Below, one piece after another: positions 6,406 through 61,740 of a stretch of 64,000 nucleotides of DNA. The stretch is taken from positions 64,001 to 128,000 of the forward strand of contig CAWHWX010000018.1 of assembly GCA_963833125.1 (NCBI GenBank). The letters are read 5' to 3'. The position numbers and the translations under genes were made by a program. Under the pieces are notes generated by a model. The model saw only the letters and a program-made list of their open reading frames with translations, did not search any database and was not told the DNA's origin. Every line of letters starts with the position of its first letter. The stretch's first letter is position 1. Source of the DNA: Candidatus Bathyarchaeota archaeon (lineage in GTDB: Archaea > Thermoproteota > Bathyarchaeia > 40CM-2-53-6).

Positions 6406-8701
6406 ATGCAAACTCTTGAGGGCATTCAACGATCAAATAACGAGGAAACACGCGTTGACGCTTTACAGAAAGTGCTCGGCAAGACCAGGTACACTACTGA
6501 CATGATTGAGCAAACGGCACTTTACCTAAGGCTTGTTCGTTCCCCACACGCCCACGCCATTGTCAAGAGGATTGACTTTTCAGCTGCAGAGAAAATCAGC
6601 GGCGTAGTGAAGGTTGTAACTGGTAAGGATGTCCCAGGAGCTAACGAGGTAGGCTTCTTCATACAAGACCAACCATTGTTCTGCGATCATAAAGTGAGGT
6701 TCGTCGGCGACACCGTCGCCATGGTGATCGCTACGACTCCCGAGGCCGCTGAAATTGGCGTCGAAGCGGTAACGGTGGATTACGAACCGCTCCCAGCAGT
6801 CTACGATCCTCAGGAAGCTCTGAAGAGCGACGCGGCGAAAATCCATGAGAAAGGTAACTTTCTCGATAGCTTCTTGGTTAGAAAGGGGGATGTTGAGAAA
6901 GGATTTCGCGAAGCCGATGTGGTGGTTAATGGCACCTATCAGACTCCTGTCCAAGAGCAAGCGTATCTTGAGACTGAGGCCGCCTTGGCGTATCCGATAC
7001 CTGATGGTATCGCCGTCCTCGGCTCGATGCAATGCCCCTTTGCTGTAGAAAAGGCCGTAAAGGTCGTTCTTGGAAAAGCTGTTTCCAATGTCCGCATAAT
7101 TCTGGCGCCAACAGGTGGAGCATTTGGCGGGAAGGAGGATGCTCCGGACGAGGTTTGTGCTAGAGCTGCTCTGGCCACTTATCTTACCAAGAAACCTGCG
7201 CTTCTTGCCTTTTCGCGTGAAGAATCCACAATCTTCCATCCCAAGCGACATCCCATCAGAATTGAGAGAAAGATGGGAGTTACTCGTAAGGGGAAAATTA
7301 CGGCGGTTGAAGCCAACATTTTGCTTGACGGAGGAGCATACGCATCACTGAGCTCACGAGTCCTTTTCCAGTCCGTGTGCTTGGTCTCAGGCGCGTACGA
7401 TGTTCCTAACGTGCAGGTAGATGGAGCGGTTGCTTACACGAATAAAGTTCCGATGGGCGCATTCCGAGGTTTCGGTAAGCCTCAAGCACTCTTCGCCGCA
7501 GAGCTCCAGATGGATGAGGCCGCTGAGCAGCTGCATATGGACCCGTTTGAATTCAGACGCAATAACATCCTTCGAGTTGGATCAAAGACGGCCACCGGGC
7601 AATTACTCTCTAGTAGCGTTGGCCTCGAAGAATGTTTGCTAAAAGCTGCGGAGGAGTCCGGATGGAAGAACAAGAGGCAGTTGTATTCGAAACCACAGGT
7701 TGGCGAGTTGCGTCGTGGCATTGGCATGGCCTGCATGATTCACCCGACGAGCCTAGGGCCGCTTGGCGTAGACGTTGGATCTGGAATTGTTCAAGTCACC
7801 CAAGATGGGACGGTGCAAGTATTCACCGGGATGACTGAGTATGGTCAAGGGATCTACACCGGTTTCGTGAAGATCGTCGCCAAGGATACTGGGTCTGAAG
7901 AATACGAAGATCAACGTCGAGATGGTGGATACGAATCTGGCGTTGGATTCAGGTCCCACGGTAGCTTCCAGAAGCACCGTCATGGGCGGCAAGGCGCTCT
8001 ATCTAGCGGCAATTCAACTTAAAGACAAAATGGCGCGAGTAGCCGCAGAGTCCCTATCTTGCAAACCAGAAGACCTACTCTGGGAAAATGATGTGATAAA
8101 GCAAAGGTCGGGCACGAAAGAGTTGACCTTCGCTGAACTCGTGAACGAATGCCGACGCAAAGGACTTGACCTCAAGGAAGAAGCCTGGAACCGTGCAACT
8201 GGCATCAACTGGGATAAGGAAAAGGGGGAGGGTTCGCCTTGGAAGTCGTATTCATGGGCTGTTCACGTCGCGGAAGTTCAGGTTGACGTTGAAACCGGAA
8301 AAGTGGACTTGCTGAACTATGTAGCCGCTCATGATTCTGGCACCGTGATTCTTCCAACTCAATTCAAGAGCCAGATTTACGGTGGTGTCGTTCAAGGTCT
8401 CGGATACGCCTTGATGGAGGAGCTTCTTATCGGGAATAAAGGGCAAATCATGAACCCCGGATTCCTCGACTACTACATCCCAACCTTCGCGGACGTCTCA
8501 ACAATCAAACCGATTCTGGTCGAGGCTCCTGACTTAGAAAACGGACCGTTTGGAGCGAAGGGGATAGGTGAACCGCCAATCGAGCCAGTTGCTGCCGCAG
8601 TCGGTAACGCTGTCTACAACGCCCTCGGATTTCCAATTCGAACATTCCCTTACACCCCAGAGCGGGTTCAGACAGCTCTTGCGGCAAGAGATAGCTCATG
8701 A
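6406..8701 (+). CDS. xanthine dehydrogenase family molybdopterin-binding subunit (frameshift near 7885)
   Basis: VRSPHAHA, GGAFGGK, GAFRGFG, TEYGQG, GPTVASR and GPFGAKGIGE. Confidence 0.9.
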
Positions 8702-51755: not shown

Positions 51756-51913
51756 GACGTTTCACCTCGACGAAGACTGAACTGACGTTCGTCTATTTTA
51801 GATAAGGATGGTGCGTTATCGGATCGAAAGAAGTTTACAAATCGGCCACGAATATCGAAGATCAATCAATTTTGAGTTCTATAGGAGCGTCCGCAGTGAG
51901 GTCAGGTCAGCGG

Positions 51914-52020
51914 TGGTGGACCGGGCGGGATTTGAACCCGCGACCTCCCGCATGCCAAGCGGACGATGTGATCGCATCGTTTTAGTCTACGATGCTCATA
52001 CCAGGCTGATCTACCGGCCC
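51914..52020 (-). tRNA. tRNA-Ala(GGC) with a 29-nt intron (51968-51996) at about position 22/23
   Basis: Acceptor GGGCCGG/CCGGTCC with G3:U70, anticodon loop TTGGCAT, GGTTCAAAT T-loop, encoded CCA; intron hairpin GCATCGT/ACGATGC. Confidence 0.92.
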
Positions 52021-52230: not shown

Positions 52231-53857
52231 ATGCAATTGATCAATCGCGCGACCCGAACAATACTGTTGGTCCTTCATTGTCCTCGCCATCCTGATGGTT
52301 GCGCTCAACGCTTTCGAATCAGCCCAGGCTCAGGCGGGCTTCGATTTCAGCGTGAGCTTAAATGGGTACTCGCTTGCGGTAGCCCCGAACCGTTCAGGGT
52401 ATGATCAAGTAACCGTTGCATTAGTTTCCGGTTCCCCTCAAACTGTGAACTTAACCTCACAGATTTCACCACAGGATGGAGAAGTGTCAGCGTATTTCGC
52501 TCAACCAGCGGGAAATCCATCATTCGTGACAACGCTCGTTGTCAACGCTCTGGCAGCCTCACCTGGCAAGATGTATACGATCTCCGTTACGGGCATGTCC
52601 CAAGGACTAACGCGGCAAGCACTTCCACTTGCGTTAACGATCAGCTGCCCTCAAGGGCCCTGCCCAAAATTGCACGTTGATTGGACGGACAAAACCTCTT
52701 ACTCACAAGGTGAATCGATCCAGTTCAGGGGATCAGGATTTTACCCAACCGATGTAGCAGCATCTTGCTTGACAACCGAGAACAATGGCACGGCCATATG
52801 CCAGAACCAGGCCTCCGCTGATGGTCAGGGGGATGTTTCAGGTTCGATGGTTGTAACCCCAAAAATACTGCTTGGCCCACAACAATTCTACCTGAAGGAT
52901 CTGACAAACGACCAACAATCCCCCAAGGTCCCGCTTACCATCCTCCAAGCGTCCCCTATCCTCACGACCGCCTATGTGGGACAAGGCTCCGTATCTCCAT
53001 CTTGCCCATCGGGCTGCGCACAACCTGTAGGGGAACTCGTGAACGTTACCGCTAGTCCGGCTGCAGGCTGGACATTCGCGGGCTGGAACATCACAGGGGC
53101 CACCTGCTTCGGCGGGCTTAGTTCAAACCCCTGCATGTTCACGATGCCAAATAACGGAGTGTCTGCCAACGCGAACTTCGTCCAATTTCAGACTCTCACA
53201 ACGACCTACATAGGACAGGGCGCAATCTCGCCCTCCTGCCCCTCAGGCTGCCAGGTGACCGTCGGGTCGACAGTATCAATCACGCCCACTCCATCTCCGG
53301 GGTGGATAGTCTCCGGTTACCACTTAACGAGCGGAGTCACCTGTGGCCCTCAGCCAGGATTTACTTGCGGCTTTATCATGCCCAACGTTCCGGTCAATTT
53401 TCAAGTGATATTCACAGAAACCACAGTAACCGCCAAAACAACCCTGACCGTCACTTCCTCGGTCACAACGCCTGTGACAAGTACGTCCGTGTTCGGAAGC
53501 ACATCCTCATCAACGATTACGATAATCACGGAATCGACGACCCAACTAAGCGGCACCCAGACAACAACCACACTATACTCGACTGGCAGCACAATAAACA
53601 CGCAAACACAATACTACGCGATAACTCAACTCTCGACGTTCACATCAACTACTACTTCGACTAGCTTGAACGTGCCCGATCCCCTAGTTGAACTCGCACT
53701 CGCAGCCATTATCCTCGTCTCATCGGCAGTTATCGGGGTTAGTCTAATCAAACAATTCCCAAGGCGGGGCATAATTTCATGCTCTAACTGCGGCTTCAAG
53801 AACTCCCATCCCGGAAAATATTGCTTGGGCTGCGGTGAACCCTTGAAGAGGACTTGA
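52231..53857 (+). CDS. surface-anchored protein: Ig-like domains, two InlB-B-repeat-like domains, Thr-rich stalk, TM helix and cytoplasmic zinc ribbon (signal peptide split by an indel near 52275)
   Basis: Repeats LTT.Y.GQG..SPSCPSGC...VG..V..T..P..GW; Thr/Ser run; TM; CSNCG...YCLGCG. Confidence 0.75.
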
Positions 53858-53862
53858 CCGAA

Positions 53863-54403
53863 ATGGCTCGCCTCCCCTCAGCTCGCGTGAAGATCTCGAT
53901 TACTCATCATATTGGTCTGCTTTCTTGGCTTCTATTCATCACTGAGCATCTCAACAGCTCAGTCAACCTACACTTCAAACCTGACGCAACTCACAACGAC
54001 CTTCTCTACCACCACGAGTTTGACAACGATAACTAGTCCAACAATATTCTACACGACTACGACAGAGACTTTGAACTCAACCGTTCAGGGGACCCAAACC
54101 CTCGCCCAAACTTCAGTGATAATGGTTACGTCGAACTATACCATTATTCTTGGCGGTACGCTAACGCAAACCATCACGTCAATAGTCACCCAGGTTTCAA
54201 CTCAGACAACCCCACTGCTCGGAAACATTTGGGGCGAATCCTTAGCTATTATTCTACTTCTGAGCGCGATTGCAAGCTTTATTGTCCCTAGAGTTCGCTC
54301 CGTCCGTCCAAGAGGAACAATTTGTAGCGAATGCGGTTATCGAAACCCGCCCTTCGCCAAGTCCTTCTGCGTCAAGTGCGGTCATTCTTTGGAGCCAACG
54401 TAG
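53863..54403 (+). CDS. small Thr-rich membrane protein with cytoplasmic zinc ribbon (possible indel near 53905)
   Basis: Signal-like N-terminus, Thr-rich stalk, TM, CSECG...FCVKCG. Confidence 0.7.
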
Positions 54404-54444
54404 CCTTACTGTGTGAGGCTACTATTCCGGTTACTGCGGTTAAG

Positions 54445-54744
54445 CTACGACGCCACTCCAATTCTTCTCTTCGGTGAATGTTTCACGGAATAGTAGGGTG
54501 GTAACGCCTTAACTTCAAAGGTTCGATGGTTCTGCGTGGGGGCCTGACTAGTGTAGATATTTTGTTGGAACTGGGGGGATGGGAGTGGTTTGGTTTGGAA
54601 TTGTGTGTTGTTTCGTGTTGCAGCTGGATGCAAGAATGGCTGGCCGAAGGAATTGGTTTGTGTGAGCCAGAAGATAATTGGCAAAACTACGGTCACCGCT
54701 ACGAAGCCTGTGGCCATAACGAAGACTATAATGACTGCGTCCAT
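54445..54744 (-). CDS. hypothetical single-TM protein
   Basis: N-terminal hydrophobic helix and Gln/Pro-rich tail; TATA box about 50 nt upstream. Confidence 0.55.
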   Translation of the reverse strand: MDAVIIVFVMATGFVAVTVVLPIIFWLTQTNSFGQPFLHPAATRNNTQFQTKPLPSPQFQQNIYTSQAPTQNHRTFEVKALPPYYSVKHSPKRRIGVAS

Positions 54745-54798
54745 TATTGACTCGCCTGTCGATACATGTATCTACGTTAATATACACATGAGTTTATA
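54742..54798 (-). promoter_or_regulatory. promoter A (TATA box plus conserved TATCGACA element)
   Basis: Minus-strand TATAAA-N28-TATCGACA...ATAATGG, paralogous to 56948-57006. Confidence 0.55.
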
Positions 54799-54860
54799 TG
54801 ACTTTCGACAGTGACGATACATTTTTAAACACGCCTAGACACCACATTGCCCGACGATAA

Positions 54861-54971
54861 ATGAACAAGGACCTATCGAACTGGCTTAGAAAAAGGATGA
54901 CGCAAATAGATGAACGGGTTACAGAGCTCAAAGTGCGCATCCTAGATGGAGATGAGGTCAATGGCTGCTGA
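54861..54971 (+). CDS. 36-aa coiled-coil microprotein resembling the N-terminal helix of the downstream regulator (not in the ORF track)
   Basis: MNKDLSNWLRKRMTQIDERVTELKVRILDGDEVNGC; TTTTAAA box about 33 nt upstream; overlaps the next start. Confidence 0.65.
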   Translation: MNKDLSNWLRKRMTQIDERVTELKVRILDGDEVNGC

Positions 54972-55317
54972 CGATGAGCTGAAGAAATGGCTTGAATCAA
55001 GATTCTCAAAGATAGATCAACGCATCGGCAAACTGGAACAGACAATCGCCGAAAGCAAGCAACCTAGAATCCGCATAGCTTGGTACAGAACCCTGCTAGG
55101 CATGACTGAATTAGGCGGGAAAGCCGGAACCGAGAAACTCGCAGATCACTTAGGCATAAGCAGGAGCGTAATCAGCGAATACCTAAACCGAATGGAAGAG
55201 GAAGGCATCGTAAAACGCGATTTCAACGAGGACACAAAGGAAACCTCGCGCTACATCTGGCAAATCGATTGGGAAACATTGCCACCAGAAATCGCATCCC
55301 GACTCAGAAAAAAATGA
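54961..55317 (+). CDS. coiled-coil plus winged-helix transcriptional regulator
   Basis: TEKLADHLGISRSVISEYLNRMEEEGIVKR; SD-like GGAGATGA 5 nt before the ATG. Confidence 0.82.
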   Translation: MAADDELKKWLESRFSKIDQRIGKLEQTIAESKQPRIRIAWYRTLLGMTELGGKAGTEKLADHLGISRSVISEYLNRMEEEGIVKRDFNEDTKETSRYIWQIDWETLPPEIASRLRKK

Positions 55318-55390
55318 GTACGGCTAGAGGCAAATTACACTAAGAACGAGTGAAAACTAAGTACCCTCGCTAAGAGGGCGCTGTTTCTCT

Positions 55391-56527
55391 TCAGGGGATT
55401 ATTGGGATGCGGTAGAAGCTGGAGAGAAATGGCCTCATTGATCTTGAAATGTCGTCCACGTCGCAATCCACACAAGACGGATCCAAGCGCAAAGGTATTC
55501 TCTTACTCCCATCTGCCAGCTCAACCTCGAGCAAAGCGTGACCCGGAAGTTTCCGTTTCTCACGTGTAGTTGCATCAGCGTATGTTCCTGGGGGGAGGAT
55601 GAGGAAGTGCATTCGTCTGAACGCGAGGCTGGCCAGCATGGAAGCCAATAGAACGACCTTACAGTCGCAGTCGCCTCCCGTTTTCATGGTTTCCCAAGGC
55701 CATCTAACGTATTCACCGAATGACTCGCCTTTGTAGATCACTTTGTCGCGGGAATATTCGAAGACGAGCGTAAGAAGCCTAAGCTGATCCTGGAACGATA
55801 GTTCTTGCGCATCTTGCGGCTTTTCTCCTCCAAGTGCAACCGCACCTATGGTCGTGGTCAGCTCGTCTACGACCGAATATTCGGGGTGATCCTTCGCTTC
55901 GACTACTCTGTTTAGCATCGTCAAGGCCACTTTCATTGTGCGCGGATCAAGAATTTGCTGGGGTTCAAGTTCTTCGACCAACACCTGTTTGGCACCGCAG
56001 TAGCGGCAGTAGGGTTCGTCGGCCCCTATTGTCTTGTTACAGGTGTGGCAATTACGCATCCGTTCCACGAAGGCCGTTTCTTCTTTCTTAATGAGTCCTC
56101 TCTGCTGTAGTCGGGTGAGAGAGTCGATGAGTTGTTCCGTGGTTACGTTCAGATCAGTGGAAGTCCTTCGTATCGATATTCCACCATGATGATCCTCCAA
56201 ATACTTGAGCACGTGGCCGTCCATGTCGGATGATTCCGTTGTATCGAGCATGCGTACGTTTATTGTAGGGCCAGGTTTGCCGGCTTGAGTAACCTGTCTG
56301 CTTTCCACTCCGACATAGGGCAGGGAGGCCTTAGACGTAGTTTCGATGGACGGTTCCGGTGGTATGAGTGACTTGCCACAGTTGTGGCAGAACTCTGATG
56401 ATGCTAGATTAATGGCCTTACAGGTCGAACATGTAGTGAGCCGCTGGCCGCATACGCCGCAATATGCTTGCCTTTGCCGGGCTGCGGTGCCACATTGCGG
56501 GCATTTCTGTGTGTTCTGTTGGGCCAT
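55391..56527 (-). CDS. double zinc ribbon / wHTH / zinc ribbon / transglutaminase-like protein
   Basis: Six CxxC motifs; wHTH-like VLKYL...LIDSLTRLQQRGLI; triad GGDCDC, GHALLEV, LDP. Confidence 0.75.
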   Translation of the reverse strand: MAQQNTQKCPQCGTAARQRQAYCGVCGQRLTTCSTCKAINLASSEFCHNCGKSLIPPEPSIETTSKASLPYVGVESRQVTQAGKPGPTINVRMLDTTESSDMDGHVLKYLEDHHGGISIRRTSTDLNVTTEQLIDSLTRLQQRGLIKKEETAFVERMRNCHTCNKTIGADEPYCRYCGAKQVLVEELEPQQILDPRTMKVALTMLNRVVEAKDHPEYSVVDELTTTIGAVALGGEKPQDAQELSFQDQLRLLTLVFEYSRDKVIYKGESFGEYVRWPWETMKTGGDCDCKVVLLASMLASLAFRRMHFLILPPGTYADATTREKRKLPGHALLEVELADGSKRIPLRLDPSCVDCDVDDISRSMRPFLSSFYRIPIIP

Positions 56528-56632
56528 GCTGTAACGCCAGTGTATTCCAGAGTTGCATACAGCCGCCCCCACGGAAATGTAATGCTTTCGGGTTCACCGA
56601 ATTAATCCACTGCGCTGGATGGAGCGTCCTGA

Positions 56633-56950
56633 TTACAGATGAAGGAGCATGGCGGCGGTAGCGATTGCGGTAAGGATGCTGAGGTATATGGCTCCGCGAA
56701 CCTTCTCCTCCTTGATTGAGTTCAGGAAGCAGACGCGTTGTGATTTCACTATTGTCTTGGTGAGATGTGTGGCTATGAAGCCAACTCCGCCGCCTATGAC
56801 GAAAACGATTGTTGTGTAAACGGTCGGGGAGAGTTCTCTGATGAAGACTGGCATGGCTCCGTATGTGAGCGCCATTTCTACTCCCATCGCTACGGCTGTG
56901 AATACTTGTTGTCTGGCGGTTGCCAGAAGGGATGAGGTTATTCGTTCCAT
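56633..56950 (-). CDS. hypothetical three-TM membrane protein
   Basis: Three hydrophobic segments; GGAG before the ATG; own TATA box. Confidence 0.6.
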   Translation of the reverse strand: MERITSSLLATARQQVFTAVAMGVEMALTYGAMPVFIRELSPTVYTTIVFVIGGGVGFIATHLTKTIVKSQRVCFLNSIKEEKVRGAIYLSILTAIATAAMLLHL

Positions 56951-57006
56951 TATATGTGTCTCCTATGTCGATATACGTCTAGACACATTAGACACACGCC
57001 TTTATA
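56948..57006 (-). promoter_or_regulatory. promoter B (TATA box, tandem GTGTCTA, TATCGACA)
   Basis: Minus-strand TATAAA-N27-TATCGACA...ATAATGG. Confidence 0.55.
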
Positions 57007-57285
57007 ACAATGTCGCTCGAATTACGATATATTCAGAGTTCGAAGTCTTGGACTTCAGATAGGAAGCTGCCGACTCAAGGAATGAGTCAGCTCTTATCCC
57101 GGTGAGACTTGATTCAATATTGGAATACATTTCGCAATTATCGCAGGCAGCTGATTCATGTTCCTAGGGTATTGACGACGCCCGTCTCTTGCTATTCATT
57201 GACGTGGGTGCGACGAAAGTCAGAGCTTCTCACAGGAAAAAGGCTTAATTCAACGCGGGCAGCACAACGGATTTTGCCCAGGAAC

Positions 57286-57436
57286 GCCGAGGTAGCTCAG
57301 CCTGGGAGAGCACCCGACTTAACCAATAAGGGTGAAGCTGAAGACCGGGTTGACCACTCCAACCGATGGATGGGCCCAGTCGACAGATTCAAACGGAACG
57401 CGAAAAACGTTCCTGAAATTCCCGCCCTCGGCACCA
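57286..57436 (+). tRNA. tRNA-Phe(GAA) with three introns (57317-57336, 57353-57379, 57394-57419); T-stem 5' strand mismatched
   Basis: GCCGAGG/CCTCGGC acceptor, D-arm GCTC/GAGC, spliced anticodon arm CCCGG-CTGAAGA-CCGGG, BHB-like junctions, CCA. Confidence 0.85.
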
Positions 57437-59010: not shown

Positions 59011-59403
59011 CTAGTGCTTCAACAGTTCCAAAACTTTCTTTTCGATCTCCGATGAGATCCTTCTGACCTGGTCGATTCCTTTTCCTTTAGGATCTTCGAT
59101 CTGCCAATCTACAAGCTTCTTCTGCATTTCCCGAACTAATGGTGAGGGGCAGACCTCCTGAACAGAGCACCCCATCGTAATAACTAGGTCAGACTCGGAG
59201 ATCATTTGTTGCGTCAGAACTTTCGGCCTTCCAGGAACAGATATGCCCCTCTCCGTCATCACTTGAGCCACAACTGGGTTTACCTTCTCCGCAGGTACGG
59301 TACCTGCGCTTGAGGCGTCCAAGCCGTATGCTCTTGCGAAGCCTTCAGCCATTTTGCTTCTACCCGCATTCTCGATGCAGACGAAGAGGACGCGTTTCGT
59401 CAA
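59011..59403 (-). CDS. arsC: arsenate reductase, LMW-PTP type
   Basis: VLFVCIENAGRSKMAE, SAGT, TMGC, DWQIEDP. Confidence 0.88.
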   Translation of the reverse strand: MTKRVLFVCIENAGRSKMAEGFARAYGLDASSAGTVPAEKVNPVVAQVMTERGISVPGRPKVLTQQMISESDLVITMGCSVQEVCPSPLVREMQKKLVDWQIEDPKGKGIDQVRRISSEIEKKVLELLKH

Positions 59404-59798
59404 ACTAGATCCTCCATCAACTCGAAACTCTTGGTGAGCCACGCCTTGATCTTTGGATTGGATATTCGGTAGAATACCCATTTTCCGTTGCGCCTGGAAC
59501 TCAGAACACCTACTCTCTCTAGTATTCCGAGATGGTGCGAGGTAGTTGGTTGTGTTAAGTCCAGCGCAGCCATAACTTCACATGAACATAATTCCTCGTC
59601 GCCTATGATTTTCAGAATCTTCAATCTTGTTACGTCACCTAATGATGAGAAGCATGTTTCATATTCTCGGAATTTGCGATCATCAAAGTCAAGTTTGGCT
59701 TTCAGTTCGTTAATGCGTTCGGTTGGTGTGCAGGTAGTATCCACTAAGCCTAATGTTACTAGGCGTTTGACTCGAGCTTGGGCGATGACGGAACTCAA
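59400..59798 (-). CDS. arsR: ArsR family metalloregulator
   Basis: LGDVTRLKIL, ELCSCE, QPTTSHHL, GKWVFY. Confidence 0.9.
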   Translation of the reverse strand: MSSVIAQARVKRLVTLGLVDTTCTPTERINELKAKLDFDDRKFREYETCFSSLGDVTRLKILKIIGDEELCSCEVMAALDLTQPTTSHHLGILERVGVLSSRRNGKWVFYRISNPKIKAWLTKSFELMEDLV

Positions 59799-59822
59799 GT
59801 TGATCAGGAGTAAAGATTATAT

Positions 59823-59842
59823 TAACATTCTTAAATATGTTA
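59823..59842. promoter_or_regulatory. candidate ArsR operator in the divergent promoter
   Basis: Inverted repeat TAACAT-N8-ATGTTA over the AT-rich region between arsR and arsM. Confidence 0.4.
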
Positions 59843-59868
59843 CTTCGTATTCTAAGAGCTGAAGAAGC

Positions 59869-60603
59869 ATGGCGCTGAACGAGGAACAAATCAAGAATGC
59901 CGTTAGGGAAAGATACAGCAAACTAGCGGTACTGAATGAATCCTGCTGCGCAGACGAGAGTGCAACCTGTTGCAGTACATCGGCAACTGAAACTGATCTC
60001 CCCGAAGAGGCGGCTCAAGTTGTCGCCAGCTGTGGAAGCCCTCTAACCCACGTACAAGTCCGCGAAGGCGAAACCGTGCTAGACTTGGGCAGCGGCGGGG
60101 GTGTCGACGTGTTTCGTGCTTCGAAACTTGTCGGGGCGAAGGGGAGAGTTATTGGTCTTGATGCAACGCCCGAGATGATTTTCAGAGCCCGTGAAACCGC
60201 CAAGAAGTATGATTACCAGAACGTTGAGTTTCGATTAGGTGAGATCGAGCACATGCCCATTGAAGGCAATTCGGTGGATCTAGTCATAAGCAACTGCGTC
60301 CTGAACTTGGTCCCGGACAAGCAGTCAGCATTCCGTGAGATTTACCGTGTTCTCAAATCCGGTGGCAGAATCTCTGTGTCGGACATGGTGGCGACGAAGG
60401 AAAGTCGAAAGGAGGTTAACCCGGAAGAGTGGGCGGGATGCATCGCGGGCGCGGTCACCTTCAACGAGTATAGAGGTCTACTGGAAGCGTCAGGATTCAT
60501 AGGCATCGAAGGATCGGATGAGCCACACCCCATAAACGACGAAATGACCTCGAAAGGGCTCCAAGTGAAAAGCGTGGCATGGAAGGCTACGAAGCCTACC
60601 TAA
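59869..60603 (+). CDS. arsM: arsenite S-adenosylmethionine methyltransferase
   Basis: N-terminal CC pairs, SCGSP, VLDLGSGGGVD, VISNCVLNL, WAGCIAGA. Confidence 0.9.
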   Translation: MALNEEQIKNAVRERYSKLAVLNESCCADESATCCSTSATETDLPEEAAQVVASCGSPLTHVQVREGETVLDLGSGGGVDVFRASKLVGAKGRVIGLDATPEMIFRARETAKKYDYQNVEFRLGEIEHMPIEGNSVDLVISNCVLNLVPDKQSAFREIYRVLKSGGRISVSDMVATKESRKEVNPEEWAGCIAGAVTFNEYRGLLEASGFIGIEGSDEPHPINDEMTSKGLQVKSVAWKATKPT

Positions 60604-60654
60604 CCAACTCCACTCGAATACTAACGCACGAATCGGTGATCCGAGGCGGCACTG

Positions 60655-61740
60655 ATGACGCAGCGGCTTTCGGTTTTAGATAGATTCCTTACCTTGTGGA
60701 TTTTTCTAGCGATGGCTATCGGCGTGGGCGCAGGTATCGTTTTTCCACAGCTCCCGAAGCTTCTCGAGACGTTGAGTGTAGGCACAATTTCGCTGCCAAT
60801 AGCAGTCGGCCTGCTCTGGATGATGTACCCGCCTTTAGCTCGTGTGAAGTACGATGAGCTCTCGAAGGTGAGAAAGGCATGGAAGATGTTCGGGGTCTCC
60901 CTGTTCCAGAATTGGTTGGTTGGCCCTTTCTTGATGTTCGGTCTGGCATGGCTGTTCCTACCAGACATGCCGGAATACCGGATTGGAATAATCATCGTAG
61001 GGTTGGCCAGGTGTATCGCCATGGTCCTAGTATGGAATATGCTCGCAGAAGGCGACAACGAGCACGCCGCCGTTCTAGTCGCCCTAAACTCCATCTTCCA
61101 GGTCGCACTTTATTCCGTTTACGCGTGGTTCTTCATCACACTCCTATCCTCATGGGTAGCGCATGGCTCCGGGGTAACCGTGGTCATTTCCGTTTGGGAC
61201 ATTGCCCGAACGGTCTTCATCTATCTCGGCATACCATTCATTGCGGGAATTGTGACTAGATTTGTGCTTGTGCGGAAGAAGGGAAAGGATTGGTACGATG
61301 GAACATTCGTTGAAAAGTTGAGCCCAACAGCATTGATCGGGTTGCTATTCACAATCGTGGTAATGTTCTCTCTAAAAGGAGGTTACATCCTCGCTTTACC
61401 ATGGGATGTGGTGAGAATCGCAATACCTCTCGTAAGCTATTTCCTCATTATGTTCACACTATCCTTCATCATTTCTAAGGCCTGGAAATTCAATTACCCA
61501 GAAACAGCCACCCTCTCCTTCACCGCGGCCAGCAACAACTTTGAACTCGCCATAGCAGTTGCAGTCGGTGTTTTCGGGATTAATTCTGGGGAAGCATTCG
61601 CCGCAGTGATTGGGCCACTCTTCGAAGTCCCCGTACTCATAGGCTTAGTCAACGTGGCACTTTGGGCAAGGAAGCGCTTCTTCATCGAAGAACAGACCGC
61701 AACAGCCACAACACAAGTAACGAGTCTAAAACACCGATAA
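60655..61740 (+). CDS. acr3: ACR3 family arsenite efflux transporter
   Basis: [45 protein letters not shown]. Confidence 0.95.

Follow-up and report, generated by a model that had tools for sequence, protein, structure and literature searches.

A candidate regulatory module of soil and peat Bathyarchaeia that joins a winged-helix regulator to a transglutaminase-fold protein

A 64,000-nucleotide stretch of a Bathyarchaeota genome (contig CAWHWX010000018.1, positions 64001-128000; the whole stretch is referred to here as the window) carries five genes, here called A to E, at window positions 54445-57006. The genome, labelled G000, comprises 3.07 Mb (3,073,301 bases) in 39 contigs. An earlier note on this DNA had proposed that these genes make up a regulatory switch, and all five open reading frames (ORFs) are present in the ORF list at the positions that it gave. 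Here, we find that the genes for a small winged helix-turn-helix (wHTH) protein, C, and for a larger protein with a transglutaminase-like fold, D, are inherited together, that a palindrome marks the promoters of two membrane-protein genes, E and A, and that D is predicted to bind the N-terminal helix of C, a helix that has a paralogue in the microprotein B. We read the module as a self-contained regulatory circuit in which C represses E and A, D is the partner of C, and B is a competitor, and we put the probability of this reading at about 0.45. We are inclined to accept that C and D are physically coupled and, as a regulatory pair, control E.

The genes of the module were searched for in 61 genomes, namely G000 and 60 relatives of the same genus, family and order. 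With thresholds of E below 1e-100 for full-length D and at most 1e-5 for C, the two genes were found in the same 11 genomes (G000, G002, G003, G006, G009, G010, G015, G016, G019, G022 and G026), and E was found in 10, every one of which also holds C and D; no E was found in G026 with the window E as query. A raw tally of 47/61 for D includes partial matches to its zinc (Zn) ribbons and wHTH domain, and full-length D accounts for 11 of these. Wherever they occur, the three genes gave one match each, and no paralogue of any of them was found in G000. Co-occurrence, which the earlier note had named as the check on its proposal, is therefore borne out for C, D and E; as a module of five genes the proposal needs trimming, as A is confined to the closest genomes and the order of E and D is not conserved. 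In wider searches, the D family counts 129 proteins and the C family 72 among 5.8 billion, at least 10 C-D protein pairs have longest contigs of identical length, consistent with co-location, and a scan of 185,579 species genomes returned 11 loci. Judged from these sequences, the module appears to be lineage-specific and found only in some soil and peat Bathyarchaeia.

Eleven loci were compared, that of the window (WIN) and L013-L022. C and D are adjacent in 10 of them, as tail-to-tail neighbours in eight and as co-directional neighbours in two (L020 and L021); in L022, one gene resembling up1, a neighbour of the module described below, lies in between. E lies no more than 4 kb from the module in nine loci, and in G009 it is found on a contig that continues the broken locus. 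Its position relative to D varies: E stands directly upstream of D in the window (on the same strand, 105 nucleotides (nt) apart) and in L014 only, the two are split by inserted genes in L013 and L015, E is positioned elsewhere in L016 and L017, and it is divergent from B-C in L018, L020 and L021. E and D form no fixed operon across the loci. The gene inserted in L013 (7303-8511, + strand) is a TnpB-like ORF with a Cas12f1-like TNB domain, and the insertion in L015 (7419-9392) consists of an MFS transporter gene and a CMD-family gene. The contigs of L018 and L020 also occur as L027 and L029, whose records are titled as Acidobacteriota metagenome-assembled genomes; the genomes concerned (G022 and G010) are placed in the archaeal genus of the window, and the records look like mislabelled or chimeric bins.

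A key feature of the module is its operator, an 18-bp palindrome with the consensus GTCGATAC-N2-GTATCGAC. One copy, O_E (56967-56984; three mismatches to the consensus), stands after the TATA box (57000-57007) of the E promoter and before the start of the gene; the other, O_A (54758-54775; two mismatches to GTCGATAC-AC-GTATCGAC), holds the corresponding place for A, whose TATA box is at about 54793-54800. These are the only two matches with three or fewer mismatches in the genome; with up to four, there are 17 in G000, 15 of them outside the locus. The two minus-strand promoters, each a TATA box followed by the palindrome, are thus paralogous as the earlier note had read them, and an operator of the module's own, without an equal match elsewhere in the genome, agrees with its description of a self-contained switch.

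The palindrome is also conserved in position. A search of 12 loci (130,592 bases) gave 20 matches with up to four mismatches, where the background of G000 gives a chance expectation of about 0.6 per 130 kb. Nine of the 20 lie 12-20 nt before the start codon of E, which covers all nine E genes in the loci that hold E, and seven further matches lie 131-203 nt upstream of C. Three overlap the half-site at the TATA box of the B-C promoter, one, in L033, was not placed against genes, and none lies elsewhere. In L018, L020 and L021, the site before E doubles as the site upstream of C, so that the promoter divergent from B-C has a site in 10 of the 11 loci; the exception, L015, has no divergent promoter.

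The B-C promoter itself (54813-54842, + strand, from the alignment of the 11 loci) consists of the half-site GACGATAC abutting the TATA box TTTTTAAA (54822-54829), followed by TAGACAC. The half-site abutting the TATA box is kept in 11/11 loci while the flanks diverge, either as GACGATAC or, in L018, L020 and L021, as the variant GTCGATAC, and the 20-mer of this promoter is unique in the genome even with four mismatches allowed. Because related half-sites flank its TATA box, the B-C operon is probably autoregulated. Clustering of half-sites was tried as a signal in its own right and rejected as too weak alone: the strict pattern T[AC]GA[CT]AC gave three and two sites in two promoter regions, and nowhere in the genome does it occur four or more times within 150 nt.

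D differs from E and A in this respect. No palindrome stands before D in any of the 11 loci, and an upstream motif of its own, CCGAAAGCATTACAT (TCGAAAGCATTACAT-like; 56577-56591, - strand), lies about 50 nt before its start codon as a candidate promoter. This motif recurs in six of the 11 loci (WIN, L014, L016, L017, L018 and L019) and has one match in the genome with at most one mismatch. Because the palindrome is missing and the upstream motif is conserved, D is probably not a target of C. The claim that the regulator controls both membrane proteins and a Cys-dependent enzyme thus keeps its first half, with a palindrome before E and A, and probably loses its second.

The putative protein that binds the palindromes is C, a regulator of 118 amino acids (aa; 54961-55317, + strand). 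Its ORF spans 54946-55317, and relatives are called at 117-118 aa, which makes 54961 the likely start. According to Pfam and a structure model, C consists of a 30-residue N-terminal helix, a wHTH domain and a C-terminal helix. The wHTH domain scores 28.8 bits against HTH_24 (cut-off 21.9) and 28 bits against HTH_5 (cut-off 22), which places C among the MarR/ArsR-type winged-helix regulators at the curated cut-off, and the model (predicted local distance difference test, pLDDT, of 87.3) has its first helix at residues 2-31 and a linker at residues 31-38 with a pLDDT of 67-77. Fold matches include MarR, ArsR, the TFE-alpha winged helix and AbfR2. Assignment to the Lrs14/Sta1 family was considered and rejected, with NCBIfam scores of 27.5 bits against 80 for Sta1 and 25.1 against 90 for Lrs14. 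The recognition helix of C is invariant in 22/22 aligned sequences and in this matches the invariant operator. BLASTP found no similarity between the wHTH domains of C and D.

D (55391-56527, - strand) is a cytoplasmic protein; its ORF spans 55391-56572, with the start called at 56527 for a product of 378 aa. According to Pfam, the structure model and alignment, it is made up, in order, of a double Zn ribbon (residues 1-57), a disordered linker, a wHTH domain (about 100-150), a third Zn ribbon (about 155-180), a helical lobe and a transglutaminase-like core. Pfam matches are to DZR, Zn_Ribbon_1 and Zn_ribbon_15, and the third ribbon has four invariant Cys (C160, C163, C174 and C177). The C-terminal domain of about 190 residues was modelled with a pLDDT above 90 over residues 200-378, and its candidate catalytic triad of C287, H330 and D349, in the motifs GGDC, GH and LDPS, is invariant in 40/40 sequences. 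With Foldseek, the only hits of this domain at E 1e-3 or better were four LapG chains (best 3.5e-4). With VIA, all top rows were transglutaminase-fold proteins with Z scores of 8-10, comprising a putative protease, PNGase, LapG, XPC/Rad4, factor XIII, TG2 and PeiP/PeiW; for example, 3kd4_A was matched at Z 10.2 (root-mean-square deviation 3.6, 141 residues aligned) and LapG at Z 9.0 (4.1, 137 aligned).

Sequence relatives of this domain are few, as an exhaustive search of 1.84 billion representatives returned only 29. In a Pfam scan of 18 of these, 13 list Transglut_core (PF01841), nine of them above its 23-bit cut-off. D aligned with nine relatives by hhalign at 99.8% probability (E 2.2e-28) with the catalytic Cys in register, the invariant GDC and H of the Transglut_core-positive relatives falling on its C287 and H330. 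Thus, with regard to the transglutaminase-like/papain-like superfamily, D has the fold and the order Cys-His-Asp and falls short of the PF01841 gathering score. We regard the C-terminal domain as a predicted transglutaminase-fold domain with Cys-His-Asp and D as a putative enzyme, one that could be a peptidase, isopeptidase, amidase or cross-linker. The Zn ribbons, the wHTH domain, the transglutaminase fold and the invariant Cys-His-Asp agree with the architecture that the earlier note had read from this gene.

Several more specific identities for D were tried and rejected. A LapG/BTLCP periplasmic protease is at odds with the absence of a hydrophobic segment, the N-terminal Zn ribbon and the lack of a sequence match, the likeness being one of fold only; a profile of D searched against PDB sequences likewise matched only Zn ribbons and, weakly, wHTH domains, and no LapG chain. 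An ImmA/IrrE metalloprotease would fit the adjacency to a repressor gene, but there is no hit to a metallopeptidase family. For the middle part of D, TackOD1 (PF18551) scored 19.4 bits against 32 and covered only profile positions 48-99 of 188; according to the available part of the source, this domain has 11 conserved Cys (PMC5847659).

Around the catalytic Cys and Asp of D (residues 287-289 and 349-358; about 55454-55669, - strand), four Cys (C287, C289, C352 and C355) are invariant and accompanied by an acidic DCDVD motif, and this cluster may be a metal or redox site. Parts of D also occur on their own. Stand-alone Zn-ribbon/wHTH ORFs of about 150-210 aa match residues 18-170 of D in many relatives, and L022, the most distant locus, holds two tandem small ORFs (7299-8143, + strand; 139 and 142 aa) with a double Zn ribbon, like the N-terminal half of D.

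A direct contact between C and D is predicted by co-folding. The pair scored 0.81 (runs 0.81, 0.79 and 0.82), against 0.01 for the best of three controls. In the calibration, the mark of 0.81 was reached by 116/157 solved complexes and 2/215 mismatched pairs, counts that hold only roughly here, as C and D were co-folded with alignments made for this analysis. At least 85% of contacts are shared between the runs, and the partner has a pLDDT of 75 or more. In the predicted interface, residues 4-33 of C, that is, its N-terminal helix, face residues 223-262, 344, 346 and 356-358 of D; the first of these ranges forms two helices of the lobe before the catalytic core, and the others flank D349. Contact residues conserved at 90% or more number 12/20 in D and 9/18 in C. 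The binding of the N-terminal helix of C by D, as the model predicts it, would place D beside or above C in the circuit.

The microprotein B (54861-54971, + strand) has 36 aa, and its ORF, found in the ORF list and the orthologue alignment, overlaps that of C. B is a paralogue of the N-terminal helix of C, to which it aligns with an offset of two residues: L7, W10, L11, R14, F15, I18, R21 and L25 of C correspond to L5, W8, L9, R12, M13, I16, R19 and L23 of B, and the hydrophobic contact positions of the helix are retained. B is intact (34-39 aa) in 7/11 loci. Its orthologues are about 50% identical, yet W8, L9, R12, M13, I16, R19 and L23 are invariant, and nucleotide differences peak at third codon positions (9, 10 and 20 at the three positions for L020; 1, 0 and 4 for L013), a pattern from which B is taken to be under coding constraint. 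Neither B nor the C-terminal domain of D matched an informative family in PADLOC, PHROGs or NCBIfam. The reading of B as a decoy, made in the earlier note with C as its object, stands as far as B is a conserved paralogue of the helix of C; the predicted binding of that helix by D suggests that B competes for D rather than simply poisoning C.

Only one RNA run, a peat metatranscriptome, contained part of the stretch, and little of it (0.06 of sampled words). Two RNA contigs from it, 95-97% identical, cover 54866-55021 and 54901-55204 and bridge the stop of B and the start of C, which is consistent with B and C lying on one transcript; the lack of coverage elsewhere is uninformative.

The two membrane-protein genes differ in how widely they are kept. 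E (56633-56950, - strand) encodes a protein of 105 aa with two transmembrane (TM) segments above the strict hydropathy threshold and a third, weaker one, giving 2-3 TM segments where the earlier note had counted three, and with its conserved operator it would be the constant regulated target of the module. Its single ESM Atlas look-alike, a lead only, is a cluster of 57 members found only in Bathyarchaeota (score 0.85). A (54445-54744, - strand) encodes a protein of 99 aa with one N-terminal hydrophobic segment (residues 1-30), as the note had it, and a Gln/Pro-rich tail. Because full-length orthologues of A are limited to the closest genomes (L013 and L014, 67-68% identity; L022 has a weak 31-aa match), A is best regarded as an optional, locally added regulated output and not as a core part. 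Neither protein matched a family at the curated cut-offs of Pfam, PADLOC, NCBIfam and PHROGs.

It is tempting to speculate on how these parts could work together. We postulate that C, a small winged-helix repressor of the dimeric type, would bind the palindrome over the likely transcription start of E and, in this genome, also of A, and would repress its own B-C operon through the half-sites that overlap the likely transcription start there. D would be a dedicated partner of C, a protease or anti-repressor rather than a target, whose helical lobe captures the amphipathic N-terminal helix of C. Because this helix aids dimerisation in MarR-like folds, its capture should strip C from the DNA. D might then either cut C in the flexible linker (residues 31-38) or sequester it, and either event would lift repression. 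The three Zn ribbons and the wHTH domain of D would be likely input or tethering parts; together with C289, C352, C355 and the DCDVD motif, they are candidate inputs for metal, redox state or membrane partners. B, made from the derepressed B-C operon, would occupy the same groove of D and so provide negative feedback and a damped response. Actual proteolysis of C by D, with B as a true competitor, we consider doubtful, and the most specific form of the idea, an archaeal helix-decoy circuit in which D is a protease that inactivates C by way of its helix, while B, as a duplicate of the helix, acts as a decoy and sets threshold and feedback, is likewise a tentative proposal that leaves us sceptical.

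The conserved neighbourhood reaches past 54445-57006, to Thr-rich membrane proteins with C-terminal Zn ribbons. Two genes, up2 and up1 (52295-54403), both frequent neighbours of the module, lie on the plus strand between tRNA-Ala and A, and no operator was found before either. The first of these, up2 (52295-53857, + strand), encodes a surface-type protein of 520 aa with InlB B-repeats (Pfam Flg_new_2 at 2e-11), a Thr-rich stalk, one C-terminal TM segment (hydrophobic at residues 457-489) and a cytoplasmic Zn ribbon (weak DZR match, residues 496-518), and it has orthologues in L013 and L014 with 77-80% identity. The second, up1 (53912-54403, + strand), encodes a Thr-rich protein of 163 aa with one TM segment (hydrophobic at residues 102-131) and a C-terminal Zn ribbon (residues 138-160; a weak Zn_Ribbon_1 match of 19.8 bits against a cut-off of 25). 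Ten of the 11 loci have a gene like up1 next to the module, the exception being L019, a short contig, and two genomes that lack C and D (G005 and G008) have such genes as well. A perfect 11-bp inverted repeat (54419-54429 with 54486-54496, spacer 56 nt) extends from within the 3' end of A into the gap that separates A from up1 and could be a terminator or a structured RNA; no tRNA was found on either strand of 54404-54545.

The earlier note had placed the module between tRNA-Ala and tRNA-Phe. Both genes are legible and bear introns, and two further genes, up2 and up1, stand between tRNA-Ala and A. The left boundary of the segment is a tRNA-Ala(GGC) gene with an insert in the region of the D-arm (51913-52019, - strand), in which an acceptor stem with G3:U70, GGC in the anticodon loop, the T-arm and CCA can be read by eye; ARAGORN, when permitted introns, reports a tRNA at 51914-52020 but assigns it the wrong type. 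The right boundary is a candidate tRNA-Phe(GAA) gene with about three inserts (57286-57436, + strand), in which the 5' part, the GAA loop and the 3' acceptor strand with CCA are legible by eye. When inserts were removed in silico, ARAGORN called tRNA-Phe in 213/18,874 variants, a permissive test, and in 0/23,790 variants with single 3' deletions. In the whole window, no tRNA was found by default ARAGORN or by Rfam (at the gathering cut-off and at E up to 10); the introns of both flanking genes are at non-canonical places, to which default ARAGORN and Rfam are blind. The same interrupted tRNA-Phe gene is also present in the relatives L036 and L037, and the window copy differs from these orthologues where the T-stem is expected, so that it may hold a further insert or be a degenerate copy.

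Further along the window (59011-61740) lies an arsenic-resistance-type cluster comprising an ArsC-like low-molecular-weight phosphatase, an ArsR-type HTH_5 regulator, an S-adenosylmethionine methyltransferase and an SBF/ACR3-like permease, with a CBS-domain gene and a VIT1 gene directly upstream. The CBS gene is retained in five relatives without the module, in two of which (L036 and L037) the interrupted tRNA-Phe lies upstream of it. In these five relatives, no cleanly definable insertion site was found, the ABC-transporter side being non-syntenic. A search for att-like direct repeats found none, and no integrase was seen among the ORFs.

Several points weigh against the circuit proposed here. 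The circuit is at the stage of prediction, in an uncultured host, and the related genomes are kin, so that the co-occurrence counts overstate independence. D itself gave no hit to a Pfam transglutaminase model within an E of 0.1. The confident contacts leave out the catalytic residues C287 and H330, and cleavage of C is therefore not directly indicated; the calibration of the co-fold is rough, and its score could have been fed by likeness to the known structures of PNGase-Rad23 and Rad4-Rad23, where a transglutaminase fold likewise carries a helical partner. D could also bind operators itself through its own wHTH domain. B is decayed or absent in four of the 11 loci (L015, L016, L017 and L019), which makes the decoy dispensable, and the RNA support for B-C amounts to two short contigs from a relative in a single library, where carry-over of DNA is possible.

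Some of these points lead to a different account of the same contact, in which C and D form a heteromeric transcription-factor complex: D would bind DNA beside C, the helix would be the assembly interface, and the transglutaminase-like domain would sense or modify some other signal (redox or metal, through the four invariant Cys) with no processing of C. We consider this unlikely. A complex of this kind would fit a D with a wHTH domain and Zn ribbon like the stand-alone DZR-wHTH proteins of these genomes, the two kinds of half-site in the promoters (CGATAC-type and TAGACAC-type), the invariance of C287, C289, C352, C355 and DCDVD, and a co-fold that backs binding with no catalytic residues at the interface. 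The wHTH domain of D is, however, missing or degenerate in several family members (for example P0086, P0093 and P0097), yet C and the operators persist in the corresponding loci L020 and L021, and a Cys-His-Asp triad intact in every sequence argues for catalysis. The layout of the earlier note, in which C regulates D as an output enzyme along with E and A, there is no contact between C and D, and B poisons the dimerisation of C, seems improbable to us. It draws on the arrangement in the window, with E and D on one strand downstream of a palindrome-bearing promoter, and on the resemblance of B to a helix that contributes to dimerisation in MarR-like folds. The other loci speak against it, as none has a palindrome before D, D has its own upstream motif, and E and D are split by insertions (L013 and L015) or lie apart or on opposite strands (L016, L017, L018, L020 and L021), and so does the co-fold, with 0.81 against 0.01 for a direct contact.

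Two further accounts look to function outside the C-D pair. The module could be a conflict system, acting in anti-virus defence, in abortive infection or like a toxin-antitoxin pair, with the protease D and the proteins E and A as effectors restrained by C, although we think this rather improbable. Its patchy distribution (11/61 relatives), a tRNA-flanked segment with different content in relatives without the module, the TnpB-like gene in L013 and effectors that would be small membrane proteins of no known family are all in keeping with such a role, and transglutaminase-like peptidases are mentioned in the available parts of papers on conflict systems. A check against PADLOC-DB 2.0 nevertheless gave no hit that identifies a defence system, and the link to defence raised in the earlier note finds no backing there: A, E, up1 and up2 had no hits, those of D (E 0.038) and B (E 0.035, Csx16) were marginal, and C matched Csa3, CasR and CARF proteins through generic wHTH regions. 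PHROGs gave no hit with a virus function, a viral fold library gave only weak, mostly unnamed matches, no integrase or att-like repeat was found near the module, its neighbours are housekeeping or arsenic-resistance genes, and synteny is stable in the closest genomes. Highly improbable, in our view, is a Lap-like processing of surface proteins, with the Zn-ribbon tails that up1 and up2 have in the cytoplasm as the substrates of D and the role of C confined to setting expression levels. The idea takes its cue from the up1-like genes beside the module and from LapG as the best Foldseek match of D, LapG being, according to the available parts of the sources, a protease that releases adhesins (PMC3032545, PMC4359373). 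Set against it are the up1-like genes in genomes without C or D, the absence of an operator before up1 or up2, a cytoplasmic D as opposed to a periplasmic LapG, and the tie in Z score between LapG and other transglutaminase-fold proteins. A circuit in which C represses E and A, D is the partner of C and B competes thus remains our preferred reading.

Bathyarchaeia are abundant in soils, peat and sediments and are uncultured, and their gene regulation is almost unknown. If the proposed circuit is correct, it would be the first repressor/protease pair built on a transglutaminase fold, and B would be the first prokaryotic gene-encoded helix mimic that tunes such a pair. Should the contact between C and D hold, there would be transglutaminase-fold enzymes that serve transcription factors as dedicated partners, archaea would have a documented case of a natural microprotein decoy, and the families of D (129 proteins) and C (72 proteins) would gain a function; should it fail, the locus would still be a clean lineage-specific regulon with a recognisable operator. 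In addition, the circuit has a single regulator, operator (18 bp), enzyme partner, microprotein and constant membrane output, and is compact and fully specified enough to be rebuilt in vitro.

Among the papers listed in literature searches outside subscription-only papers, we found no description of the architecture of D or of the gene cluster, in line with the earlier note, whose author knew of no named system with this layout. Closest by mechanism, as an analogy and not by membership, is the ImmR/ImmA pair of ICEBs1, in which, according to the available part of the source, a repressor gene that regulates itself lies beside the gene of a dedicated inactivating protease (PMC8960796). C and D resemble this pair in being encoded side by side; they are also inherited strictly together and are predicted to bind each other. 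A related pair is IrrE/DdrO; ImmA and IrrE are Zn metalloproteases, and the repressors are bacterial cI/XRE-type HTH proteins. Unlike these, D would be a transglutaminase-fold protein with Cys-His-Asp, fused to Zn ribbons and a wHTH domain, C is a wHTH protein, the host is archaeal, and cleavage is only proposed.

The likenesses of the single proteins point in several directions. D shares its predicted fold and the order of Cys, His and Asp with LapG (BTLCP), PNGase, Rad4/XPC and PeiW/PeiP, and the Z scores of the modelled domain, tied at 8-10 across these subfamilies, leave it unassignable to any one of them. Like PNGase, which has a Zn-binding module directly before its core, D carries such a module in the same place, and the helical partner predicted for this domain has a parallel in the PNGase-Rad23 and Rad4-Rad23 complexes. 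D differs in that it matches neither the sequences nor the Pfam models of these proteins, is cytoplasmic and is fused to domains of the DNA-binding type. C has a wHTH core between N- and C-terminal helices like MarR, ArsR and Lrs14/Sta1, but its long N-terminal helix is, unlike theirs, a docking element for D in the co-fold. Eukaryotic microProteins such as Id and LITTLE ZIPPER are dominant-negative mimics that bind the transcription factor itself. B resembles them in being tiny, in deriving from one interaction helix of a regulator and in its proposed titration of a partner; it differs in that it is predicted to compete for the enzyme partner, shares an operon with the regulator that it mimics, and is archaeal. 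We know of no helix-mimic microprotein in the ImmR/ImmA or IrrE/DdrO systems, and the uncommon features of the module as proposed here are a partner with a transglutaminase fold and a microprotein that mimics a helix, both within a repressor/enzyme pair.

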